Origin: Leucoraja ocellata
Lineage: Eukaryota
Length of the DNA: 64,000 nt
Direction of reading: 5' to 3'
Assembly: GCA_036785375.1 (NCBI GenBank)
Contig: JAWMAR010000001.1
Coordinates: 4,464,001 to 4,528,000 of the forward strand
Shown: positions 6,334 through 63,142 of the stretch, one piece after another
Numbering within the stretch: the stretch's first letter is position 1
How the letters are laid out: the number at the start of each line of letters is the position of its first letter
Position numbers and translations under genes: made by a program
Notes under the pieces: generated by a model
Told to the model about the DNA's origin: nothing
The model's database searches: none
The model's input: the letters and a program-made list of their open reading frames with translations, nothing else

Positions 6334-6611
6334 ATACCTAGTGTCACCCATTTTGAAGACCTTACTGCAGCATGCATTTACTATTTACTGATGTCCACAC
6401 TGAACTCCTGTGACCATACCCTGATCCTAAGGGCAAATACTGAAAGTCACTTCAGTGATAGGTAAAAACTTAAAAACTTGAATAGTTTGTAATAGATTAT
6501 ACACATTTTTTTTAATGTATGCAGTATTTTGCATGTGTTTAGCCATATGAACGTTTTCAGTAACCCTCTAGAAATAATATGCTTTTTGTTGTATCAATGG
6601 CATAAGCATTG

Positions 6612-7092
6612 TTTTTTTGTTTTTATTTTGTTATTTTATTAGAAGCAATTGTACAAGAATAAAGCAATCGGCATGAGAGTTATACAATTTTCGTACAGCT
6701 TCATTTTTAACATTTTATAAATTGATACATAAATCGAAAAAAGAGAAAAAAGGAAAGAATGATGAAAAAGAAGAAAGATGCAAAAAAGAGCGAAGAAAAG
6801 ACCCCTGAACTACCAAAGAAGCGCAAGAAGAAAAAAGAGAAAGAAGAAAAAAATAAACTGAGATGTCTTTGAAATATCGTTAACTTAGAACAGGCCTCTG
6901 ACATTCCTAAAATTATTAGTTTTGTATCTGATTCCAGTTTAATTTTAAGTGTTTTAGAGAAGGTATCGAATATTCCTATCCAGAAGTTTTGTATCTTTAT
7001 ACAGGATGCAAAGGATTGGGTTAAGGTAGCTTCTTGGAGGTGACATTTACCACAGATAGGGGAGACAGTTGGGAAGATCTTATCCAATTTAG
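6612..7092 (-). mobile_element. L1-clade LINE 3' fragment
   Basis: KIFPTVSPICGKCHLQEATLTQSFASCIKIQNFW (degenerate CCHC C-terminal domain), followed by a 3' UTR and A-rich tail; homologous to the other L1 copies. Confidence 0.8.
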
Positions 7093-8200
7093 GCATAAGC
7101 ATTGTTGATTAACTCGTTCATATGCAGACAAAAAAAATATGATTTATTTGTTTCTTAAAATGAAGAGTTACCAAAGAAGGAGGTTTTTTAATTATTAGAA
7201 GCTTAGCATAGACAACAAATAGAAATGAAAGAAAGATAATGGGAATGAAGCACACAGGATTTGTGGAATTCAATTATTTTTAACACATATTTAGTTTTCT
7301 GTTAGTATTTGTAGTTAAGATTATATAATAAAAATGTTCTTGAAAGGTTTGAAATTTTATTACTATAACATTAGTGCTCATTATGGAAAAAGGCACAATA
7401 GTATGCCAGTTAACACTCGAGTCTAATCCAACATTAATTATCACAGAAATCTGTCAATTTCTTAAAATTCTTAAAATGCTGTATTCAAGGGGTTGAGAAA
7501 TTCAGCCATCCTTTGTATATAGAATTATCTTTGAATGCCAATCCTGAAAGGCCAGAGTTTCATTTTTAGACCAACCTCACTTAGCAAAGGAAATCGTTTC
7601 TCTCTTCCCCATATTTCCTTCAATGTCTTGAAAACCTACATTGAAAATCCCTTAACTTTCTAAACTCTAGGAAATACAGCCCCGGTGTGTGTATTCCCTT
7701 TGTTTACTCTTTTTCTTGGAATTAGGGTGTCATTCAGCATTGGTCTATCTCTGTTACCAGTATATTCCTCTAAGAGTATGGTGCCCAGAACTGTCATTGA
7801 GTTCATTTGAATCTTACTCCAAGCAGAACTTTGCAGAGCAGTGAAGAAATGCTTAAACTATTATTTTTCAGTTCTACAGGGGTAAAATCCAGCATTTCAT
7901 TAATCTTTTTTTTCTGTATCTGACCATATTTTAATCTTTATAGATGAAGCATGTGTCTCTTTGGATCTTCCAGTAAAACAGCATTTAAATGGCATCATTA
8001 AAATCCATTAAATCTATTTAAACATTTTATCCACCAATCTACATGCCTATAATGCTACCTTTCTTTGTGTTATTAGAAATCTTAGACAATATTAATTTTG
8101 ATCTTACCTTAGTTGTTTGTAATAAGATGGATAATTATGACCCCAATATCCATTCTTGTGAAGTAGAATTGATTTCAAAATCATGGTGGAATAGGAGATA

Positions 8201-8471
8201 GACACAAAAAGCTGGAGTAACTCAGCAGGACAGGCAGCATCTCTGGAGAGAAGGAATGGGTGACGTTTCGGGTCAAAACCCTTTTTCAGGTGGAAATACT
8301 TGCCTGTTATACTTGTGTAGGAAATTACTGCAGATGCTAGTTTAAATTAAAGGTAGACACAAAATGCTGGAGTAACTCAGCAGGAAAGGCAGCATTTCTG
8401 GGGAACGTTGCCCATTCCTTCTTTCCAGAGATGCTGCCTGTCACGCTGAGTTACTCCAGCATTTTATGTCT
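8201..8471. repeat. Two copies of a Penelope-like short repeat (second copy is a fold-back, 8357-8471)
   Basis: GACACAAAATGCTGGAGTAACTCAGC..GCAGCATCTCTGGAG motif recurring at more than 10 sites; the first copy has a mutated hammerhead-like core. Confidence 0.7.
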
Positions 8472-8936
8472 GCCTGTTATACTCGCTTTGTCTCCTGAGA
8501 ATTCAAGTGATTTTGTTTTTGTAACCATTCATAGCATGATGCATTAGGAGAATAGCCAGCATTTCATAACTATTCCTAATCATCCTTGAGACCACAACAG
8601 TGAATCACATTGAATTGCTGTAGATCATATGTTTATGTGGGGATCTCCAGCATTTCGATCCAATGATAGAATGACAGAAAGAATGGCATATAATTTTCAG
8701 GTCAGGATATGTGACTGAGGTGGGGAGTTCGATCGGAAGATTTCTACCCTCACTGTAGACATGTGTCTTGTAGATGCCTGAGAGGTATTGGGAGAGCCAG
8801 AAGATAAATTACTGTAAGACACCACTCTGACCTGAAGAGTGACCATTATTTATACGACTGGTCCAGTAAAATTTCTGGTCAGTGCTGAACCTGAAGATAT
8901 CAGTGGAGGATTCAGCAATTCTATGGCAAGAATAAT

Positions 8937-10042: not shown

Positions 10043-10818
10043 ATTGGTTAGACAGTCTTTAGCGACGGAAATATTTTTTGCTCTTTATATATTGTTGCCT
10101 AAAAAGATTATCAGGTCTTGTTGCATAATTATTGGCCACAGCAGCTCAGATCACCATTTTTGCATTTGTCAGAAGCTGTGAGTTTATTCATTTAGTATTG
10201 CATATTTCATTTGTTACACTAAGCTGAATGTTGCACAAATTTAAAAATGTGCAGTTATTATCAATCCTTTTGATATGGGATATTCAGATTAGAAAACACA
10301 TTAAAATGTTGGTGTAGTTCAGCTTTGTGAGTCAAACAACACAATAAATGTCAATTAATTCTTGGACTGTAAATTAAATCTCCTCAGGCTTGTTAGTTTG
10401 GATTTTTGAACTTTCATTAAGTATTCTCAGATAAAACATGTGTTTCTCAGTTCTTCAAGTTATTATTATATTCTTTATAAATATTTAAAGCTTACTTGTA
10501 CGCATTCAGTTAAAATATGTGAGTTGTCAGCTGGAACATCGGAATTATGATATACATTTTATGTTTCAGATTTACTTTAAGCTTGTACTGACTTAATAGC
10601 ACGCTTCGTTGATGAGTGATGTATATGATTATCAAACAAAACTGCAAGTTTATCGATAATTAATTTTTGAGTTGATCATATAGGAAAGAATCAGTCAATC
10701 CTGGGGGAAAAATAATGCTGTTTTATTCAAATCTGATACTTTCAAGAGGGATAAATATTGTGACAGAAAATAGGGTATGAAGCTAAAGTGTGACATCTCC
10801 ACTGCATATGTTTGACAG

Positions 10819-11088
10819 CTGATTCCAAAGCCTAGTGAACAACCCAGGCAGCATGAAAGTCACCCCGAAGAAACAGAAGAGGAGCTCAGAGAACATCAAG
10901 CCATGCCAGAAGAACAGTATTCTGACAGAGGTATGAACGAAAATGAGTCAGCAACTGTGACCAAAGTGGTACAGGTCAAACAAGAACCAATTGAAAGTGA
11001 TGAAGAAGATGATCAGCGAGAGCAACAGGAACTGGAGCTGGAACAAAGAAAGAGACAGGCTGAACAACAGGAGTTACTCTTCAGACAG
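10819..11088 (+). CDS. HDAC4: Histone deacetylase 4, internal coding exon (acidic linker)
   Basis: tttgacag|CTG..CAG|gtaatt, 270 nt, phase 0/0. Encodes [46 protein letters not shown], matching the recalled HDAC4 sequence ([36 protein letters not shown]). Confidence 0.95.
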
Positions 11089-11276: not shown

Positions 11277-14128
11277 TAGACAATAGGTGCAGGAGTAGGC
11301 CATTCGGCCCTTCGAGCCAGTGATCTTGTGATCATGATCACTGTGATCATGGCTGATCATTCAAAATCAGTACCGCGATCTTGCCTTCTCCCTATATCCC
11401 TTGACTCTATCTTTATCTTACTCTATCTTTAACATCTCTCTAACTCTCTCTTGAAAGCATCCAGAGAATCGGCCTCCACTGCCTTCTGAGGCAGAGAATT
11501 CCACAGACTCACAACTCTCTGGGTGAAAAAAAAATTCTGCATCTCTGTTCTTAATGGCCTACCATTAGCAATAGCAAGAATGTCCTTCCTCAAATTTGGA
11601 GACCAAAACTGCACACAATACTCCAGGTGTGGTCACATCAGGGCCCTGTACAACTGCAGAAGGACCTATTTGCTCCTATACTCAACTCTTGTTTTTGACG
11701 GCCAACATGCTATTAGTTTTCTTCACTGCCTGCTGTACCTGCATGATTACTTTCAGTGACTGATGTACAAGGACACCCAGATCTCATTGTACTTCCACTT
11801 TTCTGATATTGTGTGTAAGAAAGAACTGCAGATGCTGGTTTAAATCAAAGGTTTTTCTCCAGCATTTTGTGTTTACCATTCAGATAATACCTTCCTGTTC
11901 TTGCCACCAAATTGGATAACCTCACATTTATCCACATTAAATTGCATCTGCCATGCATCTGCCCACTCACCCAACCTGTCCAAGCCACCCTGCATCCTCG
12001 TAGCATCCTCCACACAGTTCACACTGCCACCCAGCTTTGTGTCATTGCAAATTTGCTAATGTTACTTTTAATCCCTTCATCTAAATCATTAATGTATAGT
12101 GTAAATAGCTGCGGCATCGAGCCTTGTGGTACCCCACTAGTCACTGCCTGCCATTCTAAAAGGGACCCGTTAATACCTACTCTTTGTTTCCTGCCTGTCA
12201 CCCAATTTTCTATCCATGTCAGTACCCTACCTGCCAATACCATGTGCTCTAATTTTGCGCATTAATCTCCTATGTGGGACCTTATCAAAGGCTTTCTGAA
12301 AGTCCAGGTACACTACATCCACTGGCTCTCCCTTCTCCATTTTCCTGGTCACATCCTCAAAAAATTTCAGAAGATTAGTCAAGCATGATTTCCCCTTCGT
12401 AAATCCATGCTGACTTGAACCAATCCTGTTACTGCTATCCAGATGTGCCGGCATTTCACCTTTTATAATTGACTCCAGCATCTTCACCACCATCGATGTC
12501 AGGCTAACTGGTCTATAATTCCCTGTTTCCTCTCTCCCTAATTTTTTAAAAAGTGGGATAACATTAGCTACCCTCCAATCCACAGGAACTGATCCTGAAC
12601 CTATAGAACATTGGAAAATATTTACCAATGCGTCCACGATTTCTAGAGCCACCTCCCTGGGATACAGACCATCAGGCCCTGGGGATTTATCAACCTTCAG
12701 TCCCAACACCATTTCCTGCCTAATGTGAAATTCCTTCAGTTCCTCCGTGTCACCCTAGGTCCTCTGGCCACCAGTACATCTGGGAGATTGTTTGTGCCTT
12801 CCTTTGTGAAGACACATCCAAAGTACCTGTTCAAATCGTCTGTCATTTCCTTGTTCCCCATAATAAATTCACCAGTTTCTGTCTTCACGGGACCCACATT
12901 TGTCTTAACTAATTTTTTCCTCTTCACATACCTAAAGAAACTTTTACTATCCTCCTTTATATTTTTAGCAAGCTTACCTTCGAACCTCATCTTTTCTCCC
13001 CATATTGCCTTTTTAGTTATCCTCTGTTGCTCTTTAAACATTACCCAATCCTCTTGCTTCCCACTCATCTTTGCTACATTGTACTTCTCTTTTATTTTAT
13101 ACTGTCCCTGATGTTCCTTGTCAGCCACAATCGCCTCTTACTCCCCTTGGAATCTTTCTTCTTCTTTGAATGAACTGATCCTGCACCTTCTGTATTATTC
13201 CCAGAAATACCTGCCATTGTTGTTCCACTGTCATCCCCGCTAGGGTATTTTTCCAGTCAACTTTAGCCAGCTCCTCCCTCATGCCTCCATAGTCCCCTTT
13301 GCTCAACTGTAATACTGACACTTCCGATTTTCCCTTCTCCCTCTCAAATTGTAGATTACAACTTATCATATTATGGTCACTACCTCCTAATTGCTCCTTC
13401 ACCTGGAGTTCCCTTATCAAATCCAGTTAATTACACAACACTAAATCCAGAATTCTCTTCTCCCTGGTTGGCTCCAGTACAAGCTGCTCTAAGAATCCAT
13501 CTCGGAGGCACTCCACAAACTCACTTTCTTGGGGTCCAGCATCAACATGATTTTCGCAATCTACCTGCATGTTGAAATCTCCCATAACCTCTGTAGCATT
13601 ACCTTTTCTCCATGCCAATTTTAACTTGATTCAACTTGCACCCTGTATCCAGGCTACTGTTTGGGGGCCTGTAGGTAACTCCCATTAGGGTATTTTTACC
13701 CTTACATTTCTTTAGTTCTATCCTTACTGACTCTACATCTCCTGATTTTCTGTCATCCCTCGCAAGGGACTGAATTGCATTCCTTACCTACAGAGCGATC
13801 CCATCCCCTCTGCCCACCTGTCTCTCTTTTCGATAGGAATATTCAGTTCCCAGCCCCGGTCCTCTTGCAGCCGTGTCTCTGTAATTCCCACAACATCAAA
13901 CTTGCCAGTCTCTAACTGAGCCTCAAGCTCATCCACTTTATTTCTTATACTTCGCGCATTCATATACAACACTTTAACTTCAGTATTCACCTCCCCTCTC
14001 ACTATTGGCCCTGACCTTACTCTCTTATCCTTTCTCGAACTTTCCTTCCCATTAATTCGGGAGTCTTTTGTAACTTTTCCTGTACTCACTTACCCTTTAA
14101 CTCCATCCTTATACTCCCATTTTGTCAA
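11277..14128 (-). mobile_element. CR1/HER1 LINE, decayed ORF2 (APE endonuclease + RT) with internal deletions
   Basis: NARSIRNKVDEL..VGITET, GDFN, LDLVL, SDHN (endonuclease); KSPGPDG, NYRPVSLTS, QHGF, YLDFQKAFDKVPH, SGVPQGS (RT); FFTQRVVSLWNSLP C-terminus. A small Penelope-like repeat is inserted at ~11808-11878. Confidence 0.93.
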
Positions 14129-24295: not shown

Positions 24296-25110
24296 ATAAT
24301 GTGGATAAATGTGAGGTTATCCATTTTGGTGTCAAAAACAGGAAAGCAGACTATTATCTAAATGGTGGCCGATTGGGAAAGGGGGAGATGCAGCGAGACC
24401 TGGGTGTCATGTACACCAGTCATTGAAGGTAGGCATGCAGGTGCAGCAGGCAGTAAAGAAAGCGAATGGTATGTTAGCTTTCATTGCAAAAGGATTTGAG
24501 TATAGGAGCAGAGAGGTTCTACTGCAGTTGTACAGGGTCTTGGTGAGACCACACCTGGAGTATTGCGTACAGTTTTGGTCTCCAAATCTGAGGGAAGGAC
24601 ATTATTGCCATAGAGGGAGTGCAGAGACGGTTCACCAGACTGATTCCTGGGATGTCAGGACTGTCTTATGAAGAAAGACTGGATAGACTTGGTTTATACT
24701 CTCTAGAATTTAGAAGATTGAGAGGGGATCTTATAGAAACTTACAAAATTCTTAAGGGGTTGGACAGGCTAGATGCAGGAAGATTGTTCCCGATGTTGGG
24801 GAAGTCCAGGACCAGGGGTCACAGCTTAAGGATAAAGGGGAAATCCTTTAAAACTGAGATGAGAAGAACTTTTTTCACACAGAGAGTGGTGAATCTCTGG
24901 AACTCTCTGCCACAGAGGGTAGTTGAGGCCAGTTCATTGGCTATATTTAAGAGGGAGTTAGATCTGGTCCTTGTGGCTAAGGGGATCAGGAGGTATGGAG
25001 AGAAGGCAGGTACGGGATACTGAGTTGGATGATCAGCCATGATCATATTGAATGGCGGTGCAGGCTCGAAGGGCCGAATGGCCTACTCCTGCACCTAATT
25101 TCTATGTTTA
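24296..25110 (+). mobile_element. Young CR1/HER1 LINE, 5'-truncated
   Basis: KKANGMLAFI..LVRPHLEYCVQFWSP..QRRFTRLIPG..RGDLIETYKIL..FFTQRVVNLWNSLP, plus 3' UTR and tail. Confidence 0.95.
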
Positions 25111-26204
25111 TTCTGCACATTGTTAAATAATGTCCTCCACAACTAAAGCATAACCATCAGCAGCATAACAGTGTTACAGGCTTGTTAGCAAGTACAAATT
25201 CCATTGTTCTGTTTTCAGTACAATTAAACACTCTTGACTCTCTTGACTATTTTACATTCAGTTCTCCTCATAAATAAACAATAGCATTCTGTTAACTTTC
25301 CTAATTACTGCATACTAGGATATTGTAAGTCAAACACACCCAGATTACTCTAGATCTTAGAATTTTGCAATTTCTCACCATTCAAATAATTTTTTTTTAT
25401 TTTCCCAGCCAATCTCACAGTTTCCCAACCAGTCTCACAGTTTTTTTTCCCCACTCCATTGACCTAACTTTGTACCTTCCTTATGGCCTTTTCATAATTT
25501 ATTTCTCCTAAGTGGATCGCCTCACATTTTCCTGAATCTTAGTGCCCTATTACAATTATCTCAATAGATTCCCGTATTTCTCTTCTTACTGATGATAGAT
25601 CAACTGGTCTATTAATTCTGTATTATCTCTCTCCCTTTCCTTCGTTCCTAAATTGGGTTAACATTTACTAAAATCCATCTGAGAGAACCACTCTAGTATT
25701 GATGGAATTTTAGGAGATGATCCACAATTTTTATTGTCAACTCCTTTAGTATCCTAAGATTTGGGTCATCAAGTCTTGTAGATTTATGGCCTTTCATTCC
25801 CACCTCTCCAATAAAAAATGTTCACCTACATTGGTTTCTTTCAGCTACCCATTCATTGTAATGCTCTGTTTCCTTGACATTCTCAGTGGCTTCTGCCATA
25901 AAGATGGATGTAAATATATTGATTTAATTTATCTGCCATTTCTTTTGTCTCGGTCTGTAAGGAATACACATTAACTTAAGCCGATCTTTTCCTTTGTATA
26001 TACCTTACGGAGGATTCTATAGCCTGCTCTTGTTTCTTGATGGACTACTTTAATATTCTCCTTCCCCCTTCCTCATTAATTCCTTGATTCTTTGCTGAAT
26101 TCTGAAATCTTCCCCAAGCCTCACTTTTTTAGGACAGTTGTTGGACTTTTCCTTTAATCTAATGCTATTTTTAACTTGACAACTTAGTTAGAACACTCAT
26201 TTAA

Positions 26205-26330
26205 AAAAGAACTGCAGATGCTGGAAAAATCAAAGGTAGACAAAAATGCTGGATAAACTCAGCAGGTGAGGCAGCATTTTTGGAGAGGAGGGATAGGCGA
26301 CGTTTCGGGTCGAGACCCTTCTTCAGACTG
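26205..26330 (-). repeat. Penelope-like short repeat with an intact minimal hammerhead-like core (26299-26326)
   Basis: Minus strand CTGAAGA-A-GGGTC-TC-GACCC-GAAACGTC. Confidence 0.7.
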
Positions 26331-26917
26331 ATCTTTCTGTTTCTGTTTGTCTTGTGCCTTTAAGGGGTATCTGTTACTTGTGAACCCTATTTTTTAGAAT
26401 TGCTTGTTGATTGTGTTTTTAATGTAGTTTCCCAATTCATCATAGCCATCATGCCTTTATTATGTGCTTTATTCAGATTTGGGGGCTTATCCCCAACACT
26501 ATTTCTGTGTTTGATGGTGAAGTTTAGTTGAACCAGCATTTGGTGAATTATGCCAGGTTTTAAGTGTAACAATCAAACCTTGTGTATTTAGTGATCTTTA
26601 GTTTTGAACATTTACTCACATGGGCTATGTGTTCTTCACATAAACTTTACTTGGCACCTTAAGGCAGTTGTGCTGCAAATTATTCTAGCAAGATTTTATG
26701 CACTGGTTTTGTCAGGGTTTTCCAGTTAAGTCTTCAATTTATCTTTGTTTTCCTTTGATATTAGGTTGCTTGCTACACTCAATTTTATGTTGCATTCCCC
26801 TGCAAGACAGCTCAATGGTGACCCCTGTCTGCAAGAAGATACATAGGAACATTCCATTCCATATGTTATTTTTGGCATGAAAACCTTGTGTACTTTCTTC
26901 ACTGGTTGCACACTTAA

Positions 26918-29138: not shown

Positions 29139-29852
29139 CCCAGAGAACTACATCCTGTCTACCACTATATTGACTGAACAATTTGCTACCTTTTCATCCT
29201 CTCTCATGACATTAATCCACAGAGCAGGAATCACAGATAATATAGTATACTCCAGGGGGCTGAGAAAAGGAACGAGTTCTTGATGAGAAATTACGGTAGT
29301 GAATGAATATGTACCTTTTCCTTAAGAAGCTAGAGTTTTGATAATTAGAAACCCAGCAAAAGTGTCTCTAATGTAAACCTTCCTACAATTTAAACAGAAA
29401 GGCCAATTTTGTAGTTCTAGGTTATTTTTTAATATAAAAAAACATGCTGTTTAAATATTTCTAAGTCTCATTTAAATCACATTCCTTTTTAAATAGGAAC
29501 AAGCTAATGAAACATATATTTCAACTCTGGAAAGGGTCTGTTTCATCTCTAATGAGCAGCACTGTTCAGCTTGATTACAAATTACTCTGTATGGAATTCA
29601 AAGCATGCAGGAGTCGGCTATTAATCTGCCCACTTCAAAGCCTCAGCAGGTGCTTTCCTTAGTTTCTCAGCCCCGATCAACAATGTAACCACGGGCTATG
29701 CTCTAAATGTTTACAGCAAAAACAAAATTTTAAATAAAATGCATTTCCACTGTAGAGTGGGGAGAAAGGACAGATGTTGGTGTTTGCACACAAGCTATTT
29801 CAGTTAGCATGCTTTAGAAATATGGATTACTTGGCTGTGCCTGTAATGAAAA

Positions 29853-29947
29853 GGTAGACAAAATTGATGGAGAAACTCAGCGGGTGAGGCAGCATCTATG
29901 GAGCGAAGGAATGGGCGACGTTTCGGGTTGAGACCCTTCTTCAGACA
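29853..29947 (-). repeat. Penelope-like short repeat with a hammerhead-like core (29917-29944)
   Basis: Minus strand CTGAAGAAGGGTCTCAACCCGAAACGTC. Confidence 0.7.
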
Positions 29948-30499
29948 GATGGACTGTAATGATAGATCATTACAGACTGCAATGATAGATCATTCTAGGA
30001 AATGTATTCAAAATTAACATTTTTTTTCAAACATTTCCTTATTTACCAGCTCCCAAAGTAACTAAAAATGGGTTCCCTCTGTTCCAAAGTTCTATAATAA
30101 TTGCTGTATTTAAATAAAACCAACAAAGTGACCCAATAATCTCTTTCTGATACTGTACCTACAGCATCAGATATAAATTTATTTGGGTCATTTGTGTCGC
30201 CTACTCTTCAATCTTTTCTGTTCAACCTTTCTTTTCTGCTTGGAGTTGCTTTCACTTTCCAGCATCTACAATTATATTTGTCATAGTTAAGAAGGTAAAT
30301 TAATTTAGAGTTGCATTGTCTCAATGTTGCCCCCTAAAGGACGACTGAATAATGTTGGTGGGGTATTTCATCCTCTTCCACACATGGAGCAATATTAACA
30401 ACACCCAGTACAATCTTGACACAATACAGAAAAAAGTGTAATTTCACAAAAATATTTTATTCAGTAAATTAATGGGAAATCAGCTAATATAAAGTAATA

Positions 30500-30681
30500 A
30501 AAAAGAACTGCAGATGCTGATTTATACCAAAGGTGGACACAAAATGCTGGAGTAACTCAGCAGATCAGGCAGCATCTCTGGAGAACATGGATTGGTGATG
30601 TTTTTGGAGCCGAAATGTCACCTTTCCATATTCTCCAGAGATGCTGCCTGACCCACTAAGTTACTCCAGCATTTTGTGTCT
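30500..30681. repeat. Fold-back (inverted dimer) copy of the Penelope-like repeat
   Basis: GACACAAAATGCTGGAGTAACT..GCAGCATCTCTGGAGAA arm and its reverse complement ending AGTTACTCCAGCATTTTGTGTC. Confidence 0.75.
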
Positions 30682-30917
30682 ATCTCAGCTAATATCAAGG
30701 TTTATATCAGACAAAATGCATGCAAAACATACACTTGCAAGTTTTCTCACTTGCAGAACACCACCATAAACAGATGCTTGATACATGGGACCATTTTTTT
30801 AATGAAATTCCCAAGTCTATTACGCAAAATAAACATTTTGTGTTGTAGGCCAGTTCCAATTTCATCCTTCGTCTTTCCTGCCCTATTATCATTAAGTGAG
30901 AATCCTAAATTTGCAGG

Positions 30918-31310: not shown

Positions 31311-32321
31311 TGTAGGAAGTGGTGTGGGGAATGTAATTCTGTGTACACAGAGCTTTGTACAATGTAATGTCATTTCAGTGTTGGCGATGGAAAAGGGTGG
31401 CAGGTTAATGAGGAGAAGAGTAGTGGGACCAATTAAATTCCTCGAATGGGAGTTACATGAACCTAATGCGCTGCACTGAATGGACTCCTGTGTGTTTATA
31501 AGTATAGGATGATATAAGCCTGGTCCACAAAATATCAAGAAGTTGTTCAAATTACATCCTCTCCATTCATCTACCCTCCCCCTCCCCCCTCCAAACACAC
31601 CCCCGCCACAAATCTCTAACCTGCTTAGCTGGCTACAGAGACATTAATAGATGCTCATTATGTTGAATTTCATTAAGAATATCTTCAAAACAAAAACAAA
31701 GGCAAAAGGGTAGATTAATCATTTTAAAACTGCTGGCTACACATAGCCTCTCTGAGCCTTTCCCTCCATTGAAACGAGTAGAGATACTATTCCTATAAAG
31801 AGGTTAGTTCTAGTGCAGTGATATTAGTGGTAATTGCCCACATTTTACAAAATGATCTCTTATGAGAAGCACAGTCACCATCACCAAAACAGCTGACTGC
31901 TACTTTGTGTTTAGGAGGTAATCCTATAATGGCTGATTGCAAGCATTGGCAATAGTCCCCACAGAATGTGGGCCTTTATTCCACCAATACCAGCAGTTTT
32001 TCTGGCTTTTCTCTTGGGGGTTGTGGACTCAAATTCTAACAAATTATTTACTGTGTTTAAGACCAGGGGGGTGAATAACAAAGATGAAACAAAATTAGAT
32101 TGATCCTGTATCTAACCTGTTTTCATCCAATTTGCAAAAATACCCCTTTTTAAACTAAATTAACTAGAAAATGATCAGCAATGGAAATCTTGGCACTTTC
32201 CTCAACAAGCTAATACTGGACATTATTGTCCAGTTAATGTCAGTAGATTGATCCCAAAGTTTATTCCATGTGATTCACTGTAAGAAAGTTTAATCCAGAT
32301 CCAAACATTCAAGGCTATGAT

Positions 32322-34333
32322 TCTAAATACTCCAATAACAAAATATCATTATATGCAGATGATGTATTATTATATATCACCAATTCTCAAGTTAGTATTC
32401 CAAGTATTAAATATTATAGAGGAATTCGACTTCTTTTCAGGATATAGAATAAACTGGAACAAAAGTGAAATTATATCATTAAAACCTGAAGAGTCTACAC
32501 ATCTTCTAAAATTCCCTTTCAGAATTGCTACGGAAAAATTCAAATATCTGGGTGTTCAGGTAACCAGAAAATATACCTCTCTATTCAATGCAAACTTCCC
32601 GCCTTTAGTTACTAAATTAAACGCTCTTATTCAATTTTGGAAAACACTCCCATTGTTTCCAATAGGCAGAATAAATGCTATAAAGATGATCTTCCTCCCA
32701 CAAATTCTGTATTTATTTCAATCAATACCGATGTATCTTCCTAAAATGTTTTAAAAAATCTTGATTCTCTGATTACAAACTTTATCTGGGATTATAAAAC
32801 ACATAGAATTCATAAACTATGTAAACCCAAAGAAACAGGCGGATTGGCTCTCCCCAACTTTTTATACTATTACTGGGCAACGAATATTAAAAATGTAATT
32901 TACTGGCTGGACAACTCATGCCAACAGGTAGACTGGTTAATAATGGAGGGACAGGATTGCTCGCCTTTTAATATAGGCACGATTCTTCTCTCCCCATCAA
33001 ATTTGAAGAACACACTATATGATAAAAATCCGATTATTCACAGCACTCTACGACTCTGGAGACAAGTAAAATCAATTTTTAAACTAAGAAATTTATCTCT
33101 TCTTTCACCAATAGCCACTAACCCTTTGTTCAAGCCATCTATTATAGATAAAACATTTACATATTGGGAAAGATAGGAATCAAAAAACTTGGAGATCTCT
33201 ACGAGATGGGAATTCTTCTCTCATTTCAGGAATTATAGTCGAAATATCACCTGAAAGGTAATCAATATTTCAGATATTTCAGAAAACATATACCCAAGAC
33301 TGCCAAACTTTGCTGCCAGATATACTAGACAAATGTATGAATAAAAATTCAGAGTCAAACAACTTAACATTATATTTGTATAATACCCTTCTAAATATAG
33401 AAATCCCTTTGTCAGAAGTAATTAGAAGAGACTGGGAAGAGGAACTAGGCCTAAAAATTCTAAAAGACAGATGGGAAGAAAACCTTTTATATATACACAA
33501 TTGTTCGATTAACGTTAGACATACGTTAATTCAATTAAAAATACTGCATAGACTCTACTATTCAAAGTCTAAACTGAATAAGATCTTTCCAAATGTATCT
33601 CCTATTTGTGACAAATGTCTCCTTCAAGAAGCAATTATAACACATTCCTTCGCCTCTTGCATAAAATTACATAACTTTTGGAGAGAAATTTTTGAAATTC
33701 TCTCAAAAATATTAAAAACAAAATTGGACCCCGACATGGAACTGATTATTCTAGGAACGTCAGAAGCCTGCTCTGAGTTATGAATATTTCAAAGACGTTT
33801 CCTCAATTATGGTGAAAAAACTAATACTCAAATTTTGGAAACATACATCTGCCCCTACTCTTAAAATGTGGATTACAAACATGTCTGAGACACTACATCT
33901 TAAAAATATAGACTTGTCTTAGCAGAAAAACCAGAACATTTTTCGAAGACATGGCCACCATTCATTGATATATTACAAGGATAGTATGGTGCAACACAAT
34001 TTTGGAGTTAAATCTAATTACGTGATGGGTGGGGAGGGGTACGAGGCATGTATATCATCACCTTTTGTTTTTCTTTCTGTTTTTGTCTTTTTATTTCTCT
34101 ACGTCTTTCTTATTTATTTTACTTACACACTCTTTGGCTACACCAATTTGGTAGTCTAGGGGTTCTATTCTTGCACATCCACCTTTTCTCTCTCTTGCCT
34201 TTTCTCTCTTCTTTTCTAAAAACTTTAGCTAAAAATTAAAATTGAAGCTGTACAATAACTGTATTTTGCCATATGCCGCTGCTTATATTTTTGTATACTG
34301 CTTCTAATAAATAAAAATAAATTTAAAAAAAAA
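32322..34333 (+). mobile_element. L1-clade LINE, 5'-truncated, decayed ORF2 with poly(A) tail
   Basis: Begins near the SLYADD motif; FSGYRINWNKSE, KYLG, GRINAIKM, GGLALPN, CDKC..H..C; AATAAA and A-tail at 34306-34333. Confidence 0.9.
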
Positions 34334-36599: not shown

Positions 36600-38548
36600 A
36601 TTATTTGGCATCTAAAATTATACAATTATTGTTCAGCTTCAATTTTAACCTTTTAACTTGAAAATGAGAGAAAAGAAGAGAGAAAGAACAAGAGAGGGAA
36701 AAAGTGAGAAGTGAAAAGATAGCTCGATAAAGTACATAGAAAAGATCCCTAGACTGTCAAAGTAGTGTGGCCAAAAAGTGAATAAAGATATAAGAGGAAA
36801 AAAGAAAGTGGAGATAAACCTGCACCTCGTCCCCCACCCCCCCCCCCCCCCCCCCCCCTCCACCCTCCTCACCCAACCCAGAATCGGATTTAAATCTAAA
36901 TTTGTGTTGCGCCATACTTTCCTTGTAAGAATTCGGTGAAAGGTGTCCATGTCTTAAAAAATTGATCTGGTTTTTCTGCCAAGACAAGCCTAATATTTTC
37001 CAAATGTAGTGTCTCGGACATGTTTGTAATCCACATCTTCATAGTAGGGACTGATGTGCTTTTCCAAAATTTAAGTATTAGTTTTTTCGCCGTTATCAGG
37101 CCACAGTTCAGGAAACGTCTTTGAAATAATGTTAGCACAGAAAAGGCTTCTGATGTACCTAGTGTGATCAATTCTGTGTCGGGGTCCAAATTTATTGTAA
37201 GTATTTTAGGAAAAATTTCAAATATTCCCCTCCAAAAATTGTGTAACTTTATACAGGAGGCAAAAGAGTGGGTTATGGTTGCTTCCTGAAGGAGGCATTT
37301 ATCACAAATAAGGGAGACATTTGGGAAGATCTTATTCAGTTTAGACTTTGAATAATAAAGTCTATGCAGTATTTTAAATTGTATTAGTGAGTGCCTAACA
37401 TTAAGAGAACAGTTGTGTATATATAGAAGGCTTTCCTCCCAACTATCTTTTAAAATTGTTAGGCCCAGTTCATCTTCCTAAGCTCGCCTAATTATTTCCG
37501 ACGATGGGGTTTGTCTATTTAAAAGGGTATTGTAAAGGTACGGTATTAACTTATTTGAATCCGACTTACTATTCATGCATTCGTCTATGTCTGGAACCAT
37601 ATATTGACAGCCTTGGGTATGTGGTTTCAGATAGTCTCGTATTTGAAAACATCTAAAGTATTGGTTACCTTTCAGATGATATTTCGACTGTAATTCTTGA
37701 AATGAGAGGAGATTCCCCATCTCATAAAGGTCTCCCAGCTTTTTAATTCCTAAGCTTTCCCATTGTATAAACGCCTTGTCTAAAGTAGATGGCTTAAATG
37801 AGGGATTGTTGGTGATTGGTAAGAGAAGAGATACATTTCTCAATTTAAGGGTTGACCACTTGTTTCAAGATTTGTAAGGTGCTATGGATTATCGTATTTT
37901 TCTCATATGCTGATTTTTTCCTATTTATTGGAGAGAGAAGAATCGCGCCTATATTAAAAGGAAAACAATCTTCTCTCTCCATTATTAGCCAGTTTACCTG
38001 TTGGCATGTATCGTCCATCCAATAGATTATATTTTTAATATTCGTTGCCCAGTAATAGTAAAAAAAATTAGAGAGAGCCAGTTGCCAATTTCTTTGGGTT
38101 TACATAAATGTCGTTTATGGATTCTGTGAGTTTTGCAATCCCAAATAAAGTTTGTGATCACAGAATCGAGTTTAAAAAAAACATTTTTAGGGAGATAAAT
38201 CGGTATTGATTGAAATAGGTACAGGATTTGTGGAAGGAAGATCATCTTTATGGCATTTATTCTACCTATGAGGAAGATCGGAAGCGTTTTCCAAAATTGA
38301 ATAAGGACATTTAGTTTGATTATTAATGGTGGAAAATTTGCTTGAAATAAAGAAGGATATTTTCTAATTGCGTAAACTCCAAGATATTTACATTTTTCTG
38401 TAGCAATTCTAAAAGGAAATTTTAGAAGTTGTGTCGAATCTTGAGGTTTTATTGACATAATTTCACTTTTGTTCCAGTTTATTCCATATCCTGAAAAGGA
38501 ACCAAATTATTCTATAAGATTTAGTATGTTTGAAATACTAACTTGGGA
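36600..38548 (-). mobile_element. L1-clade LINE, 5'-truncated, decayed
   Basis: Colinear with 32322-34333 in opposite orientation (KFPFRIATEK, GRINAIKMIFLPQILYLFQSIP, ICDKC). Confidence 0.9.
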
Positions 38549-39888
38549 GATGTTGGCCCTTTCTTTGTATTACTCAATAACAAGTTGTGGAGCAAGTTCC
38601 TGCATTTTCAAATCTGTAGACACTTTATTTATTTTTCTTTTAATTTCTCTCCAAAGCATTAGAACTTATCGGGAAATAAATCATTTAATTACATTGCTGT
38701 GTCAATAACAAATGACACCACAACACAATATGCTGTTACTATTTTACAAGTACAACTGGTAATCGTTCATTTAATTTTTTGTTGACATGAGCATGTCATC
38801 GATGGGCATTCATACTATTTTTCTCTTAGTGCGTCAGGCCTGGCAGTTATTTTCATCATAATAGTGCTTGGCTTAAGTAACATTATTATATTTGGTCAAA
38901 ATTTCATTCTCAGGATCAATTATGTACCATTTTGTCAATTAATTGTATCCAGATGTCACAAAACGGAAGGCTGGTGTTTTCTACTTCTGTTCTTGTACAG
39001 GTCACTCATCTCTCCATCTTAAAAGTCAGTGGATGAAATGGCAAGCGGAAATGCAGAAAGCTTTAACCAGTAGGATGGAAGTTACGCACAGTTAAATTCC
39101 ATATCCCCTCCCAACAAAATAAAGCTCAGATTAGTGGTTTGTCAACCTCCAAAGTTATAGGTTTGAATGGGTAACCAAGCCATGTAAACCAAGAAGATCT
39201 GAAGGGTCCTGACCCAAAACGTCACCTATCCTTTATGTCCAAAAATGCTGCCTGACCTGCTGAGTTACTCCAGCATTTTGTGTCTCTTTGGTAAAACGAG
39301 CATCTGCAGTTCCTTTTTAATACAAGTAACCCAAGTAAGCATAGCTATATGGCATTACATATATTGTTCATTGTGAAATTAGTTGTTTTAAATTTAGGTG
39401 CAGTAACTGCTGTTAACCGAGGTTTTAAATTAATCAAATGCTTGAAATGGGTATTTAGATTTGAACTTTTACAGTACACCTCTAACTCCCACTGCAATTG
39501 AAAGTGTTAAAATAAGTATTAATATTTACACAAAGATTAATTCACAAGAAAAAATTAGCATAAGGATTGTGTGCATTGATTTCTTTTTGAGAAACTGACC
39601 AGGCAGTTTAATTCTACTGTAAATGTGTCTGAGTAAATATATCAAACCACTCATTTGTTTATTCTTTAAATAAGTTCTTAATCAAAATGTGATACGAGGT
39701 CTCCTGTAATCCTCCTGCCCCTTCTCAATGATAGAAAAAAAGCTATATGTCATTTAAATCTCACCCGGGACTGGTGAAAATACTGCTGTGATCAGAAAAA
39801 GATGTGGCTCACCCCGGGGAGTAATCAAAAATAAAACTGAGTAAATAAAGTAAACTTTCTGCTTAATTTGAGGATTACTTTAACTTGA

Positions 39889-40233
<345 letters not shown>

Positions 40234-41559
40234 TGAAAAATATTGTACAACTTACGCCCACATTTTAGATAATTAAGTTATTATCCCAAGTTTGAGGTCA
40301 CTGACTAAACCAATCTCTCTTCGCTATCTCCATGTCTTCAGATTGTTTGTTGGACATCTGTCCATGGAAACGCATCCAGTTTCTCCAGTTAAACTCCAAA
40401 AGCTAAAGCCTTTGTTTTCAGCTCTTGGCAGAAACTCCAGATCTCTCTCACAAAGAAGCAGTCAGAGGATCAGGCAGTATCTGCGAAAGGAGAAAATCAG
40501 CTCTGAAATGTTCAGTTTCTCCTTCCGGTCTAATCTGAGGTCCTTATTTTGTGGCCAGATAAATCCAGGGGTCTTGATTGATCCCAAGGTCTTCTGGGTT
40601 ATGCCTTGTGTGTACCCTTTAAAAAACATTATCTATGTATTTGAATTCTCAGGAAAATATATTCCATAGAGTTGATTGCTCTTCAGAAATTAAATTTATT
40701 ATGATTGAGCTCAAAATATTGCACAAGATTGGGTAAAGAAGGCACTTTTGATCATTGAGAGGACACTGATTCCAACATCAAATTAAATTAAATATCATGC
40801 ACTAATCAATCTATGTTTCTAAGTGGTGGCTGTAGAAAAATTCCCTGACCACTAATTGGAACCTTTGCATGCACTGGAAATTGTCGCTATTTCCAAACCT
40901 AACTGAGTATTATCATGGAGACACAAAAACTGCACATGCTGGAATATTGAGCAAAAAAACATATTGCTGGAGGAACACATATGTACAATCTGAATAAAGG
41001 TCTCCACCCAAAATGTCATCTATCCATTCCCTCCACAGATGTTGCCTGGCCTGCTGAGTTCCTCCAGCACTTTGTTTTTTGAGTACGATGAATATTTGTC
41101 GAAAAATTAAATACGCATGCCAAGACGAGATTGGAGAAATATGGTTACAATCAGATGTTGTTAATGGTGGAGTGACTTGAATGGTCTTCTCATGTTTTGA
41201 TATGTTTACTTGTATTGGAACAAGTGTCCCGATACTGATTGCTGCAGAAAAAGCCCATCCTCATAATGAGAACTCTAAATTGTCCACTGGTATGTGAGTA
41301 AAATTGGCTTCCTTGTTCTCATTGCTATTCTGTTAGGCTAATTTTTCCTTAATTAATAACAATGATTTTTTTGAAAAGAATTACGGTGCAATAGGTTGAC
41401 AATCAAAAGGCAACAAATCAGATTCTTGAGTAAACAAATGTTTAATGCTTGTTATAGTTATCAATTCCAATGAAGTGTTACTTTTTTTTGTATGTTTCAC
41501 TTTTTTTAATGTATTTATGGTGAATTGTTTATTGACCTTTTTTTTCATTCCTCTGATAG

Positions 41560-41693
41560 GTCTTGTTTATGATACTCTGATGTTGAAGCACCATTGCACT
41601 TGTGGCAATACAAATAGCCACCCTGAACATGCTGGGAGAATCCAGAGTATCTGGTCTCGACTGCAAGAGACAGGCCTACGCAGCAAATGTGAG
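41560..41693 (+). CDS. HDAC4: Histone deacetylase 4 exon, start of the deacetylase domain with class IIa structural zinc ligands
   Basis: ctgatag|GT..GAG|gtaatt, 134 nt, phase 1/0. Encodes (G)[44 protein letters not shown]. Confidence 0.97.
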
Positions 41694-42754
41694 GTAATTT
41701 CCAAACACAGTCAAGAGCTTCTTGATTCAAGTCTAAATGTAAAACAAACTGTTGCCGCCACTGTTGAATGGTTTAGAATAGTCTTTTGCAAAATTGAAAT
41801 ACAAACTTGAGTAGCTTCATGAGCAGAATTTAAATCTTAAATTACTAATTTACTCTGATCAAGTTACCTCTGAATTGTGTTAAAGCCATTTGAAATCTGC
41901 ACAGACAGTACCTGTGTTAATTTATTAGCATAACAAATGATGGTCATTAAATCTGACGTGAGAACTTGATATAAATCATTTGAACATAGTCCTGGCTTCA
42001 TGGATTTGGATGTATTACAGGCAATCTAAACGCTCCAGTCTGCAGCAGTGCTTTTACAATTCATCATGCAAAACAAAATGAAACGGGCTCGATAGTTAAG
42101 GAACGGTATTCTCATAACTTTATTTTTTTCTTGTTTCATTTTGTAAATGGAGGAGACTGGGACTATGCTCTCTGAAGTTAGAAAAATGGGAAGTTATCTA
42201 TGAAACATAGAAAGTTCCTAAACCCTTACAAGTGTATGGAGTTGATGTTTTGCTTGGTGGTGTGTCTAAGCCTGGAGTTGCACTGTCAGAATAAGAGGTC
42301 AGCCATTCAGGATGCAGATAAGAAGACATTTCTTTGCCCAGAGGTTAGGGTGTCTGGAATTCTCCATGAGGGTCAGTTGCTGAGTAAATCAAGACAGTGA
42401 TTGATAGATTATGGTTATTAAGGAAAAACAAAAATCAGCCATGATTTGATTGAATGGCAGAGCAGTCGCATCTATATCTTGTGTTTTTTCTATTTCGAAT
42501 AAGGGATAGAGGACATTGGAAGCAATGTTCCTATAAGAGGGAAGAGACCAGTGAAAAATTATGCAAATATACAAAAAAAGCTGGAAGTGTTGTTGCAGAT
42601 TATTATGTTTAATTACTTAAAATAAATATATGCATGGTAGATGAAAGTACCATATTTCCTGGCAATGGAGACACACCTGCGTCGAAGACGCACCCCTATT
42701 TTGAGTTGCTAAATTTTGAAAAAAGGCTGACTGGACAGGATCAAGGGTTTGGTT

Positions 42755-46947: not shown

Positions 46948-48964
46948 TACTCAATTATTTCATTCTCAGCTTTTCCATCGTGTTTTACTGTATATGTGTT
47001 CCTTGATGAAATGTTGGCTAACACACTTTATTTAAAAAGAAAGGTAACTGTTAGTAGACGAGGCCCACAATTATTTTTCGCCACATAGTGTTTTATGAGG
47101 ATTTTAAGAGATTTTACTTCTAAATTAAATTCTTCCCATTTACAATTTGGTAAATACTAATATAGTTGTATAGCAAAATATATGTACATTGGACCTCTGT
47201 GAAATTCATTAACCATTACTTGTCATTTTATAAACTATATTACCCCCCTTTTTAACAAGAGAGTTCAGATTTATATTTGCGTATGCACTCGCATTCTATT
47301 CCTATGCCTTTGTGGCAGGAGAAAATTAATTTATATGGTGAGCTGCATATCTTTTTAATTATGTTAGTGCATACATTCTAAAGTAAATAAAATCTCAAAA
47401 ATATTTCAGTTGATTATGTTTATGAAACAATAGGCCTTCATGTAGTGCAACAGACAATATTCATCGGGTGAGGCCATTCTTGGTTTGCTTAAAACTAAAC
47501 CTGGTATCACTAAGTACAAACATATTTTTATTGTAATTTCAAAGACATGCAGCTCAGCACAATGATGGCACCAATCCATTTGAACTTTTACCTACAAAAG
47601 AAGTATACTGGTGCATGACTGTTTTGAACAGTATGACATATGGAGGAAGTATAAATAGAAAGAAACTGAAGTATACATTTGGATTAGATTGTTTCCATGT
47701 GCCATTGAATTTTATAAAAGGCCTATATGATTATCGCCTATCTAGAGATGTGCCTTTGTAGTCACACACACAGTTGTACATATTGTTATATCTGTCAGTT
47801 GTCAGACGTTAAATTAAATATGCCCCTTGCTTGCATGAGATGTAATTATTTTGGAAAGTGTTTTTACTTTTGAATAGGTATTTCATGACAAGGGTAAATA
47901 ATTTATCAATATTTGAACAAGCCTTTTAATGTTTTGTAGTCTTCTTTAGTACATAGGAAAGCATATAAATTATGTGAGTTTTGGTAATGTCAGCAGTGTA
48001 TCCTTCATTGACCTTTTAAGCATTATTATCGATATTGACATCTAAATATATTGTGTTCTTTGTAAAAGCTTCCAACTGTAAAAAAAAAAACAAGACCCCA
48101 AAATAAGTTCATAGTTCATAAGTGATAGGAGCAGAATTAGGCTTTCGCCCCATCAAGTCTACTCCACCATCCAATCCTGGCTGATCTATCTCCCCCTCCT
48201 CACCCCATTCTCCTGCCTTCTCCCCATAACCCCTGACACCCATACTAATCAAGAATCTATCTATCTCTGCCTTAAAAATATCCATTGAATAAAATCTTTA
48301 AGTTCAAATGGGTTAACCATTCTTCTCCCATGCCACGTACTTTGTGTAGCAAGAATATAGATCTTTAAGATACTGACCATGGGAACATTGATATTTACCC
48401 AAGCACATTGCACCAAAGATCCTTTGCACTAGCAATTGTTCCAGGGCGAAATTGAAACATTCATAAAATTAGACTAAGTACTTAAATTTCATTATACCTG
48501 GCATAAGCTAATGGACATTTCTGTCTGTATCAATGTAAATTGGAGCTCAAATCTTCACACTGAATCACAGAATAGGCAACGCGGAGCTAAACTAGATTGT
48601 GCTTGGTTTTTTTTCCTGTAATTTAAAGGAAAACACTGCTGACATTGGGAGTGTGGGCTGGGCAGCAGAGCTGATTTCAGACTGCTCAGACATCTTCCAA
48701 AGTCTGCAAAATGTACTTCAATTAATAGGAAGTGTTTTCTCTAGAGCTGGGATATCATTCCAAGGGACATGTTAGAGAGAATAGGTTACAGGGAAAATAA
48801 GTGGGGGAATTGGATTGATGCAATTGTCTGATACCTGACCTAGACTCCTTCTGTATCATAAGGGAAATTAAATTTGAGTGTCTCAGTAACAACATCACTA
48901 ACTGGAGGAGTTAAAGGAGTGTCTTTTAGCCATGGCAGACTACTTGGAACAGAAGACAAAGACA

Positions 48965-49148
48965 AGGTACACAAAATTGTTGGAGAAACTCAGCGGGTGC
49001 AGCAGCATCTATGGAGCGAAGGAACTAGGCAACGTTTCGGGCCAAAACCCTTCTTCAGACTGATGGGGGGTGGGGGGGGGAAGAAGGGAGGAAAAGGGGA
49101 GGAGGAGGAGCCCGAGGGCGGGCGGATAGGAGGGTGGGAGGAGACAGC
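48965..49148 (-). repeat. Penelope-like repeat with a hammerhead-like core (49031-49058) and an extended flank
   Basis: Minus strand CTGAAGAAGGGTTTTGGCCCGAAACGTT, preceded on that strand by a pyrimidine-rich extension. Confidence 0.65.
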
Positions 49149-54087: not shown

Positions 54088-55410
54088 TTAACTCAGCGGG
54101 ATAGGCAGCATTTCTGGAGAGAAGGAATGGGTGACATTTCGGCTCGGAGAATTATCCAAGCAGAATCCTTTTTGGGCAACTAGATTATGATTTGTTAGAA
54201 TTATACTGTTGCAGTAAAATTTTTGTAGGTGCACTATATAAAGATAAACTTCAATGATGTTTATCGTAAGCTAATTTACTAAAAATTACTGAGAAGTTTG
54301 CATTTAAATTTTTGTCAATTGAATATTAAAGTGGAATCCCAGCCAAATTGTATCACTGAAAACCAAGCGTATGTCTTGCTGATGGAAAGACCTAGTCCTG
54401 CAGATTGTGGATTAATTAGTTCATGTAATTTTCAAAACTTAACATAACACAAACCACCAACATTAAATTTGTTTGGGGTATGCAGTAAGTGAACAGCTTT
54501 AATAAAATTATCTATGCTAGTTTATGCAATTAGGAGTTTTAAGAATTTTATATGCCATGACATATGGTGACAAAGGTATTTAGTAATCACTTATTTATCC
54601 ATTATGTCCCAAACAAGTATTGTTTTATATTTAAGCAGAACTAAGTAAACCCCCTGCTGTTAACAAAGACATTTGTTTCACAGCCTGCAGGGAATATTGA
54701 AACAGTAGGGGGCAGCAGGATTATGAATGACAAAATAACACTTCTACCAACATTGATTTGTTTTTCTCTATGGGCCTCTATTTCTGCTCTTGAATTCCTA
54801 CAATGAATTTACTCTATTTAAAAAGTACTTTAAATTTGTGATTTTCATTTGTTTGTAAATAAGAAGTCTGGTGTTTAAAAGTAATATCTGAGATGACATT
54901 GAAACAAAGTGCTGGAGGAACTCAGTGGGTAGGACAGCATCTGTGCCTGATTGTACAGACAACCAGCAAAATGACAAGCCACCAGACCCTTACCTATAGA
55001 TGCTGCCTGACCCACTTATTTCCTTCAGCACTGTTTTTTGCTCTAGATTCCAGCATCTACAGTTTTGCCCGAGATGACATTCTTGGTTATGCACTTCTAT
55101 CAAAACAATAATGACATTTGTCAACAAATCAAGCTATTGCTTTATAGTATGACAAATTTGAAACCACTTAATCTAATGGTATGTTTGCTCACGATAGTTG
55201 CATATTCTTTTGATTCACTTTTTTCTTTTATTATCTTTCCTCTCAATATATCTCTGAACTCTTTCACTCCATAGATAATATTGACAGTAGTTACAGGATG
55301 ATAGATTGCATTGTTAGAAATATCACTGAAAATCTCGTGAAATAATCTTTGAGGATGTTTTGTTAATTTGTATGATATAGACGTACTTACATTTGTCTTT
55401 ATTTCTGCAG

Positions 55411-55531
55411 TGCATCAGAGGAAGAAAAGCATCGTTGGAGGAACTGCAAACTGTTCATTCGGAGCAGCACGCATTATTGTATGGCACTAATCCATTGAAC
55501 AGACAGAAGCTAGACAGTAAGAAGCTACTAG
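55411..55531 (+). CDS. HDAC4: Histone deacetylase 4 exon (deacetylase domain)
   Basis: ttctgcag|TGC..CTAG|gtaatg, 121 nt, phase 0/1. Encodes [40 protein letters not shown](G). Not in the ORF track because it is short. Confidence 0.97.
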
Positions 55532-56281
55532 GTAATGTATAGTTCAGTCCTCTTTACGTTTTGATGTCGTTCCAGAAATAGCTATTGTTTCTATCCATGG
55601 GAATGATGTTAGCTTAGTATGCACTGAAATAAGTGATGAATTCCAAGCACTTTATCTTTCTTTTACAGTGAGTTTACAGGGATTAACAATATTTTTATAT
55701 TTAATAAGTTTTATACTTCCCCTGTTTTGTTTTAAAGTTAGAGTTACTTACAGAAAATGGGGGTACATTTTATGCATGTTGTATTGTCTGTATTTATTTT
55801 AAATGTAATTCAGCTGGAATTTAATCCTTGTTCTTTAACATGCCAGTAAATCCAGAACCTAACTCTCTCAGGCTATGGGCAAGTTTCAGTTGAAATATAT
55901 GCAAATATTATTGAAAATAATGCTTATATGTTAGAGCTCATAATTTATTTGAAAATGTTTTAGATTTTTAAATTTAGATTCTAAATATTACTTTCCCATT
56001 TTTTCCAGTCTTTTCTTTTCATTATAATTTTCTTACTGGATCATGCTCTTACTATTTCAACTTTGATTTTACGTTCTTATTTCTTTAAAAAGTTAAGAAC
56101 ACTTCTTCCATTTTCGTAATAGATCAAATGAAAAAGATAGTTTTATTGATTTGCTAAAACAAATTGACTTCTTAATCAACCAAAAACCAATGGGAAATAA
56201 AGATTGATCTGGCTGCAGGGTTGGCAACATATCAGTAAAGATGTCTTTGATTCTGGAATGACACAGCCAAATGTTACTTTA

Positions 56282-60093: not shown

Positions 60094-60113
60094 ATTGGGC
60101 ACAAAATATGTGG

Positions 60114-60206
60114 TAGACAAAAATGCTGGAGAAACTCAGCGGGTGAGGCAGCATCTAAGGAGCGAAGGAAATAGGCAACGTTTCGGATCGAAACCTTTCT
60201 TCAGAC
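60114..60206 (-). repeat. Penelope-like short repeat with a weakened hammerhead-like core (60177-60204)
   Basis: Minus strand CTGAAGAAAGGTTTCGATCCGAAACGTT. Confidence 0.65.
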
Positions 60207-63125: not shown

Positions 63126-63142
63126 TCCCTGGTAAGGCCTGT

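Follow-up and report, generated by a model that had tools for sequence, protein, structure and literature searches.

The window analysed here, a 64,000-nucleotide stretch of Leucoraja ocellata DNA, lies wholly within the HDAC4 gene, which is on the plus strand as the original prediction held and whose exons span window coordinates -146,894 to +102,900 with mostly 80-100% identity to skate HDAC4. One of its introns carries, on the minus strand, a 28-mer with the core of a minimal type I hammerhead ribozyme (min-HHR), present exactly as had been claimed at 26299-26326, together with dispersed relatives (Table 1). Pieces of other elements share the window: an RNase H-like frame beside an RT (RVT_1, E 6.6e-8) at 1268-3342 (minus strand) and a 325-aa tyrosine recombinase ORF (Phage_integrase, E 1.2e-8) at 62172-63149 (minus), both of which we take to be likely DIRS-type retrotransposon pieces; a LINE remnant with AP endonuclease and RT at 57204-59569 (plus); and LINE remnants at 32284-33783 (plus), 36896-38506 (minus), 12227-13137 (minus) and 24592-25023 (plus) with L1/Tx1-like and CR1-like frames, labelled by eye.

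Table 1. HDAC4 exons and copies of the hammerhead repeat in the window
Feature	Position	Strand	Remarks
Stub with G8 changed to A	8196..8290	-	
Core-less pLTR pieces as a head-to-head inverted pair, one of them tailed	8310..8478	.	13-bp direct repeat at borders, read by eye
HDAC4 coding exon	10807..11088	+	96% to P0011; focal copy in next intron
Focal stub	26200..26333	-	begins a few nt ahead of core; ~90 nt of pLTR plus optional tail
Tail of focal stub	about 26200-26235	-	~35-40 nt
Minimal type I hammerhead core (focal)	26299..26326	-	sequence match and min-HHR features in the available text of PMC4209133; 5' to 3': C3-A9 box, extra A, 4-bp stem II, CUCG loop, G12-A15.1, palindromic 15.1-16.1 half of intermolecular stem III, GUC triplet
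Stem II of focal core	26318-26315 with 26310-26307	-	
Predicted cut of focal core	between 26299 and 26298	-	
Tail-less stub	29850..29953	-	intact core 29917-29944
Direct repeat flanking this stub	29954-29962 and 29841-29849		9 bp
Head-to-head inverted pair with truncated cores	30498..30686	.	11-bp direct repeat at borders, read by eye
Sense stub with tail	39198..39320	+	deletion in CUGANGA box, G12 changed
HDAC4 coding exon	39895..40128	+	approximate bounds
Old sense stub, decayed core	40986..41075	+	
HDAC4 coding exon, start of deacetylase domain	41559..41699	+	
Longer stub	48964..49133	-	intact core 49031-49058, UUCG-type subfamily, GUU
Stub cut off inside stem II	54089..54146	-	
HDAC4 coding exon	55408..55566	+	approximate bounds
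93-bp stub	60113..60205	-	begins 1 nt ahead of core; first stem II pair broken
Target-site duplication of this stub	60206-60218 and 60100-60112		13 bp
Core-less fragments	about 8.3-8.5, 11.8, 21.0, 21.7, 30.5-30.7 and 54.9-55.0 kb		

All seven further copies that had been listed for the window (8263, 29917, 39199, 40990, 49031, 54133 and 60177) are there. The window stubs are ~95-170 bp long, and target-site duplications (TSDs) occur at two core copies, those at 29917 and 60177; none was found around the focal stub. The copy at 60177-60204 has intact boxes and the GUU triplet ascribed to it, but its G10.1 is changed to A so that the first stem II pair is lost. No Penelope-like ORF lies inside the 64-kb window, and the in-window link to a coding element is the longer stub, which retains, ahead of its core, ~75 nt from the pyrimidine-rich 3' UTR of the element and is 83% identical over 49133-49013 to the element locus L131.

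A single fold fits the 215 copies sampled in contiguous sequence totalling ~1.26 Mb: C3-A9, one extra A, a stem II of 4 bp that starts from G10.1-C11.1 and carries a tetraloop, G12-A15.1 and then C-G-U-H, with loop III absent. The repeat thus has the C3-A9 and G12-A15.1 boxes, the NUH triplet, the extra nucleotide after A9, G10.1-C11.1 and the palindromic 15.2-16.2 that mark a min-HHR; the min-HHRs described in the available text of PMC4209133 likewise combine conserved boxes, the extra nucleotide, G10.1-C11.1 and the 15.2-16.2 palindrome with an absent loop III, and like the repeat they reside in pLTRs, mostly as dispersed single motifs with some nearby inverted pairs. Stem II is present as originally drawn, but 4 bp closing a YUCG-type tetraloop fit better than the proposed 5 bp with a 2-nt loop, the fifth "pair" being C-G in only 112 of the 215 copies and U-G in one subfamily. 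The doubt expressed about stem I was justified: it has 2 bp only in these copies (2.1-1.1 and 2.2-1.2, with 2.3-1.3 an A-C in 139/215), short of the helix I of at least 4-5 bp of a minimal type I hammerhead. On the part of PMC4209133 available, stem I has 4-5 bp in Schistosoma families and 2 bp in a D. virilis variant, which places the repeat among short-helix-I variants.

Variation among the copies is compatible with this fold. Subfamilies differ in loop II, at U10.4-A/G11.4 and U2.1-A/G1.1 and at C/U17 (GUC or GUU), and no common subfamily variant falls at a non-CpG catalytic position in the 215 copies; core losses are mostly CpG decay, the two CpGs being where the majority of damaged cores have their defect. 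No double compensatory change in stem II was found in these copies, only one-sided U-A/U-G swaps between subfamilies, so structural support comes from one-sided changes only. A folding model gives the monomer a stem II probability of at most 0.002, and the hammerhead dimer -6.7 kcal/mol as against -28.3 kcal/mol for the best co-fold. The active hammerhead fold is predicted from this model to be disfavoured, and single intronic copies would be expected to cleave poorly, if at all. No Rfam hammerhead match reached the gathering score in the whole window, nor E<=10 in 26200-26400. Weak activity is familiar in such motifs: for the min-HHRs of pLTRs, Cervera and De la Pena (2014) report no monomer cleavage and low dimer activity (PMC4209133, available text), and min-HHRs are known in the pLTRs of fish and other metazoan Penelope-like elements, dispersed singly and with weak dimer-only activity (PMC4209133 and the review PMC6765202, both in the text available).

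The repeat is very abundant. In the 3.44-Gb assembly the exact 28-mer has 21,383 matches versus 0 for a reversed control, and a catalytic-box pattern whose fixed positions are limited to the boxes themselves, G10.1/C11.1 and the palindrome has 124,731 versus 16, counts that are inflated by duplicated haplotype segments in the assembly, the true numbers being lower. A class IIa HDAC paralogue is seen twice on contig C9 (3.38-3.71 Mb), and DCC exons appear twice on different contigs (C1744 and C110), both cases being duplicated haplotype segments. The ~1.2e5 box-intact matches compare with ~4,000-9,000 in coelacanth and Xenopus in the available text of PMC4209133, although the descriptors differ and the figures are not strictly comparable.

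The Penelope origin and min-HHR identity proposed for the repeat are supported by ORF linkage in related loci of the same genome, where the sought connection to the pLTRs of RT + GIY-YIG elements was found. Among 30 exact-match loci, nine translated ones carry, on the same strand, upstream remnants of RT and/or GIY-YIG (duplicate pairs occur among the nine), and an inverted partner is present in seven of the 30. A search of the assembly with an RT fragment gave 150 scored matches among 72,176 candidates; 50 loci were examined, and in 32 of the 35 that reach the C-terminus of EN, the GIY-YIG endonuclease, a sense core lies 67-193 nt behind the EN end. When the 5' end of the ORF was used for the search, a core stood 135-136 nt ahead of the first plausible ATG in 16/30 loci, these upstream cores usually being preceded by a 3' fragment of EN or by its UTR. 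The repeat is found both behind the ORF end and ahead of the ORF start, a partial tandem that makes a pLTR. Locus L093 matches RVT_1 (E 1.8e-5) and GIY-YIG (E 1.4e-3), both below Pfam cut-offs, and in a whale-shark homologue (P0002) GIY-YIG is above the cut-off. No intact full-length ORF occurs among the loci read.

The translated loci have a C-x4-C-xx-C linker ahead of EN, which conforms to CX2-5CxxC, and the parent element is likely of the Neptune clade, an assignment from sequence that rests on this linker motif, which is shared with Nematis. The copies also show an optional 30-40-bp tail, an inverted 5'-truncated partner and short TSDs, traits of Penelope-like elements, and for 179 of 429 copies another copy lies on the opposite strand no more than 300 bp away. 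The EN+ Neptune elements described in the available text of PMC8557442 and PMC3846280 share with it the C-terminal GIY-YIG, the CX2-5CxxC linker and partial-tandem pLTRs, as well as the inverted 5'-truncated copy, the optional 30-40-bp tail and the short TSDs; the element differs from those descriptions in that RT is preceded, in the copies read, by a further reading frame and by a long stretch rich in proline. Many of the ORF-bearing copies L091-L110 shift frame at one C-rich spot between the RT thumb and the zinc-finger linker, through recurrent slippage or assembly error. A single TGA that recurs in RT matches raised the idea of a selenoprotein, which was rejected since the TGA sits in a shifted frame and not in that of RT. 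Two public protein models, P0001 (a DIPK1C isoform of Hypanus) and P0004 (a DCC isoform of Amblyraja), contain RT/EN sequence of the element, as annotation chimeras or by exonisation.

The repeat is, then, a known arrangement in one more genome. A literature search found no paper that deals specifically with this family in elasmobranchs or that tests the hammerheads of pLTRs for strand bias, and the supplements of PMC4209133 and of the retrozyme preprint (10.64898/2026.07.22.740005) may list cartilaginous-fish motifs. With high confidence the repeat is taken to be the hammerhead pLTR of a very abundant RT + GIY-YIG Penelope-like element, likely Neptune, and the window copies to be its insertion stubs, likely in neutral decay and predicted to have little or no single-copy cleavage.

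The ends of young copies bear on how such stubs arise. The 3' ends of 53 young copies form two clusters ~40 nt apart, 36 at +84..+103 and 15 at +116..+135, with two shorter, and TSDs of at least 8 bp (9-14 bp) are present around 8 of 36 solo copies of the short kind versus 2 of 696 flank-swapped controls. At the 5' side, 33 of 55 young solo core-bearing copies start 0-9 nt before C3, three start 11-19 nt before it and 19 run into the UTR, while only 2/136 young solo copies start at the cleavage site. The element's letters are kept upstream of the core in 94 short solo copies at position -1 in 74, at -2 in 73, at -3 in 59 and at -4 in 32, and position -4 has the element letter in 45/51 UTR-bearing copies. 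Since the first nucleotide of a stub is found 2-5 nt ahead of the core rather than at the point of cleavage, the templates appear to have been uncut RNA, as for the Poseidon element PAc of Anolis in vitro.

A plausible course is that the element's endonuclease nicks the target and that RT then begins synthesis within the RNA, at either of the two tail sites, for which the anole PAc offers an in vitro precedent, copies back ~95-135 nt of what would be uncut RNA and halts immediately 5' of the core, probably where the RNA itself begins; we infer that this stop is run-off at the RNA 5' end. A role of the ribozyme, if any, would lie in the RNA of the parent element, where two ribozymes would pair by way of the ACGU palindrome, probably helped by the element's protein. 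PAc (Frangieh et al. 2024, PMC11167929, in the text available) has in common with the element a hammerhead at the pLTR-ORF junction, two 3' ends that define a tail and insertions from uncut RNA. Its tail is given by internal RT start sites, its hammerhead cleaves only with protein, and unprocessed RNA is its main insertion substrate (PMC11167929, same text). The ORF of PAc starts within the hammerhead in that account, whereas here the first plausible ATG is ~136 nt behind the cleavage site with the tail before the ATG.

Other observations on the RNA start and on junctions can be set beside this. The letters around -3 resemble an initiator. An Inr-like motif is described in a rotifer pLTR (PMC3846280), and an internal promoter with a pLTR intron in the Penelope of D. 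virilis (PMC2377424), each in the available text. Among non-C bases ahead of the AG(T/A) edge, as a possible trace of a cap G, G was found in 12/25 locally and genome-wide in 1235 (A 1243, T 820), 37% versus the ~27% expected from base composition, a modest enrichment whose reading is limited by A being equally common and by fold-back junctions that can add G. RNA reads from a related organism give deep coverage of the repeat but no accumulation of starts at the 5' edge. Ends do not accumulate at the cleavage site either, though libraries of this type, fragmented or oligo-dT, would scarcely show it; the strand ratio in two single-cell runs varies along the stretch and was left out of account, and the few "goes back" joints, such as a circular RNA would give, are also expected from rearranged genomic copies. 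In head-to-head pairs (L003, L023, L026, L116, L127) the junction often lies at a near-palindrome that spans the 5' edge of the core, which suggests fold-back priming there.

Two other accounts of the short copies have to be weighed against a parent with its insertion stubs. The sharp 5' and 3' edges and TSDs of the short copies, their far greater number than that of ORF-linked copies, and the reported derivation of retrozymes from pLTRs (10.64898/2026.07.22.740005, in the text available) would agree with a self-propagating non-autonomous family, retrozyme or SINE-like, transcribed and mobilised as its own short unit, and non-LTR retrozymes as described there share with the repeat a type I hammerhead, a relation to pLTRs and the lack of coding sequence. 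Retrozymes, which that text describes as depleted from introns in Xenopus, are however defined there by tandem hammerhead units, while the copies here are solo stubs or head-to-head inverted pairs with TSDs, dispersed alongside a coding parent, so that the alternative first offered, a retrozyme-like family, is not supported: no head-to-tail array of the short unit was found in 60 pattern loci or in 464 kb around the window, apart from one two-unit case (L038/L039). Core subfamilies are moreover common to short and ORF-linked copies, the upstream flanks of short copies are mutually unrelated, and the stub edges are accounted for by the parent's RT start sites; a separate short unit is accordingly rated very unlikely. 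The UTR of the element, a pyrimidine tract that ends in CAG one base before the core, recalls the splice-site precedent of the D. virilis Penelope (PMC4209133 and PMC2377424, in their available parts), and this CAG could be a 3' splice site at which splicing builds a stronger stem I and activates the ribozyme. But the variant preceded by GGGU (648 copies), with which stem I would be longer, shows no upstream exon common to its copies, the 30 loci of this variant being in many cases inversion junctions and for the rest possessing unrelated flanks; short copies are without common upstream sequence, and no GT-AG joint at the CAG is among the joints listed for four RNA runs. Activation by splicing is thus the least probable of the readings considered.

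A further rival concerns cleavage within host introns. The origin may be as preferred here and intact sense copies may nevertheless cut host pre-mRNA, be selected against and so be under-represented on the coding strand of introns. The original prediction saw a possible sign of this in the window, where the intact cores were all antisense; a perfect copy in sense orientation exists, however, 9 kb past the window, inside one of the introns of HDAC4 (window coordinate 73,224). A wider sample was taken from the introns of HDAC4 (250 kb), DCC (800 kb) and a class IIa HDAC paralogue on C74 (200 of 276 kb), 426 hits with 4 local duplicates dropped, and its power is low because only ~1.25 Mb was covered. 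Strictly intact cores in the three genes number 7 sense and 18 antisense (p=0.043), or 7 and 15 without the window copies (p=0.13), with the lean in the same direction in each gene and with a downstream control word of similar length near even (21-22 sense, 18-19 antisense). The intact fraction is also lower in sense, at 7/133 versus 15/110 without the window (Fisher p=0.026 versus non-intact) and at 3/30 versus 10/27 among young copies (p=0.025), and pure neutrality does not predict such a lean.

Against selection stands the fact that selection is not established by the copies as a whole: all copies divide into 218 sense and 204 antisense, core-covering ones into 134 and 115 and young ones into 31 and 31. 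Since copies are born intact, selection should thin all core-bearing sense copies, and as this is not seen a low rating is given to it. All 11 catalytic nucleotides are kept equally on the two strands (46/134 sense, 39/115 antisense), and the lean traces mainly to CpG C-to-T change at C11.1, which is found in 38/134 sense versus 13/115 antisense copies (~2.5x; p=0.0009 uncorrected and picked from 28 positions), and at C15.2, where the sense excess is smaller. A general transcription-linked CpG asymmetry was rejected as the cause of the C11.1 excess, being absent at the loop and downstream CpG. With stratification by subfamily and age, 7 of 19 are sense where 10.0 are expected (one-sided p=0.094), and with a G-U closing pair allowed p is 0.27, several definitions having been tried. 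Together with the perfect sense copy in HDAC4 and the predicted disfavour of the active fold, these results make selection against sense copies unlikely, and the antisense lean of intact cores is at most a weak, unconfirmed trend. A bolder extension appears somewhat less likely still: that the RNA starts three bases before the core, that the ribozyme is a protein-gated decapping switch and the stubs strong-stop-like run-offs, and that the ~100,000 box-intact copies could be cleaved in host pre-mRNA upon expression of the element's protein, leaving intact sense copies measurably depleted in introns.

The preferred reading is that of a Neptune-like parent and its insertion stubs; both the sharpness of the stub ends and the weak lean to antisense count as leads that can be tested and not as findings. 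The abundant sharp-ended stubs record Penelope-like insertion, with RT starting at two sites and stopping immediately 5' of the core, and with cleavage leaving no footprint. The ~1e5 box-intact copies are numerous enough for asking, across the whole genome, if the hammerheads of pLTRs ever cleave in vivo, and a sense-strand deficit, if confirmed, would be population-level evidence of such cutting.
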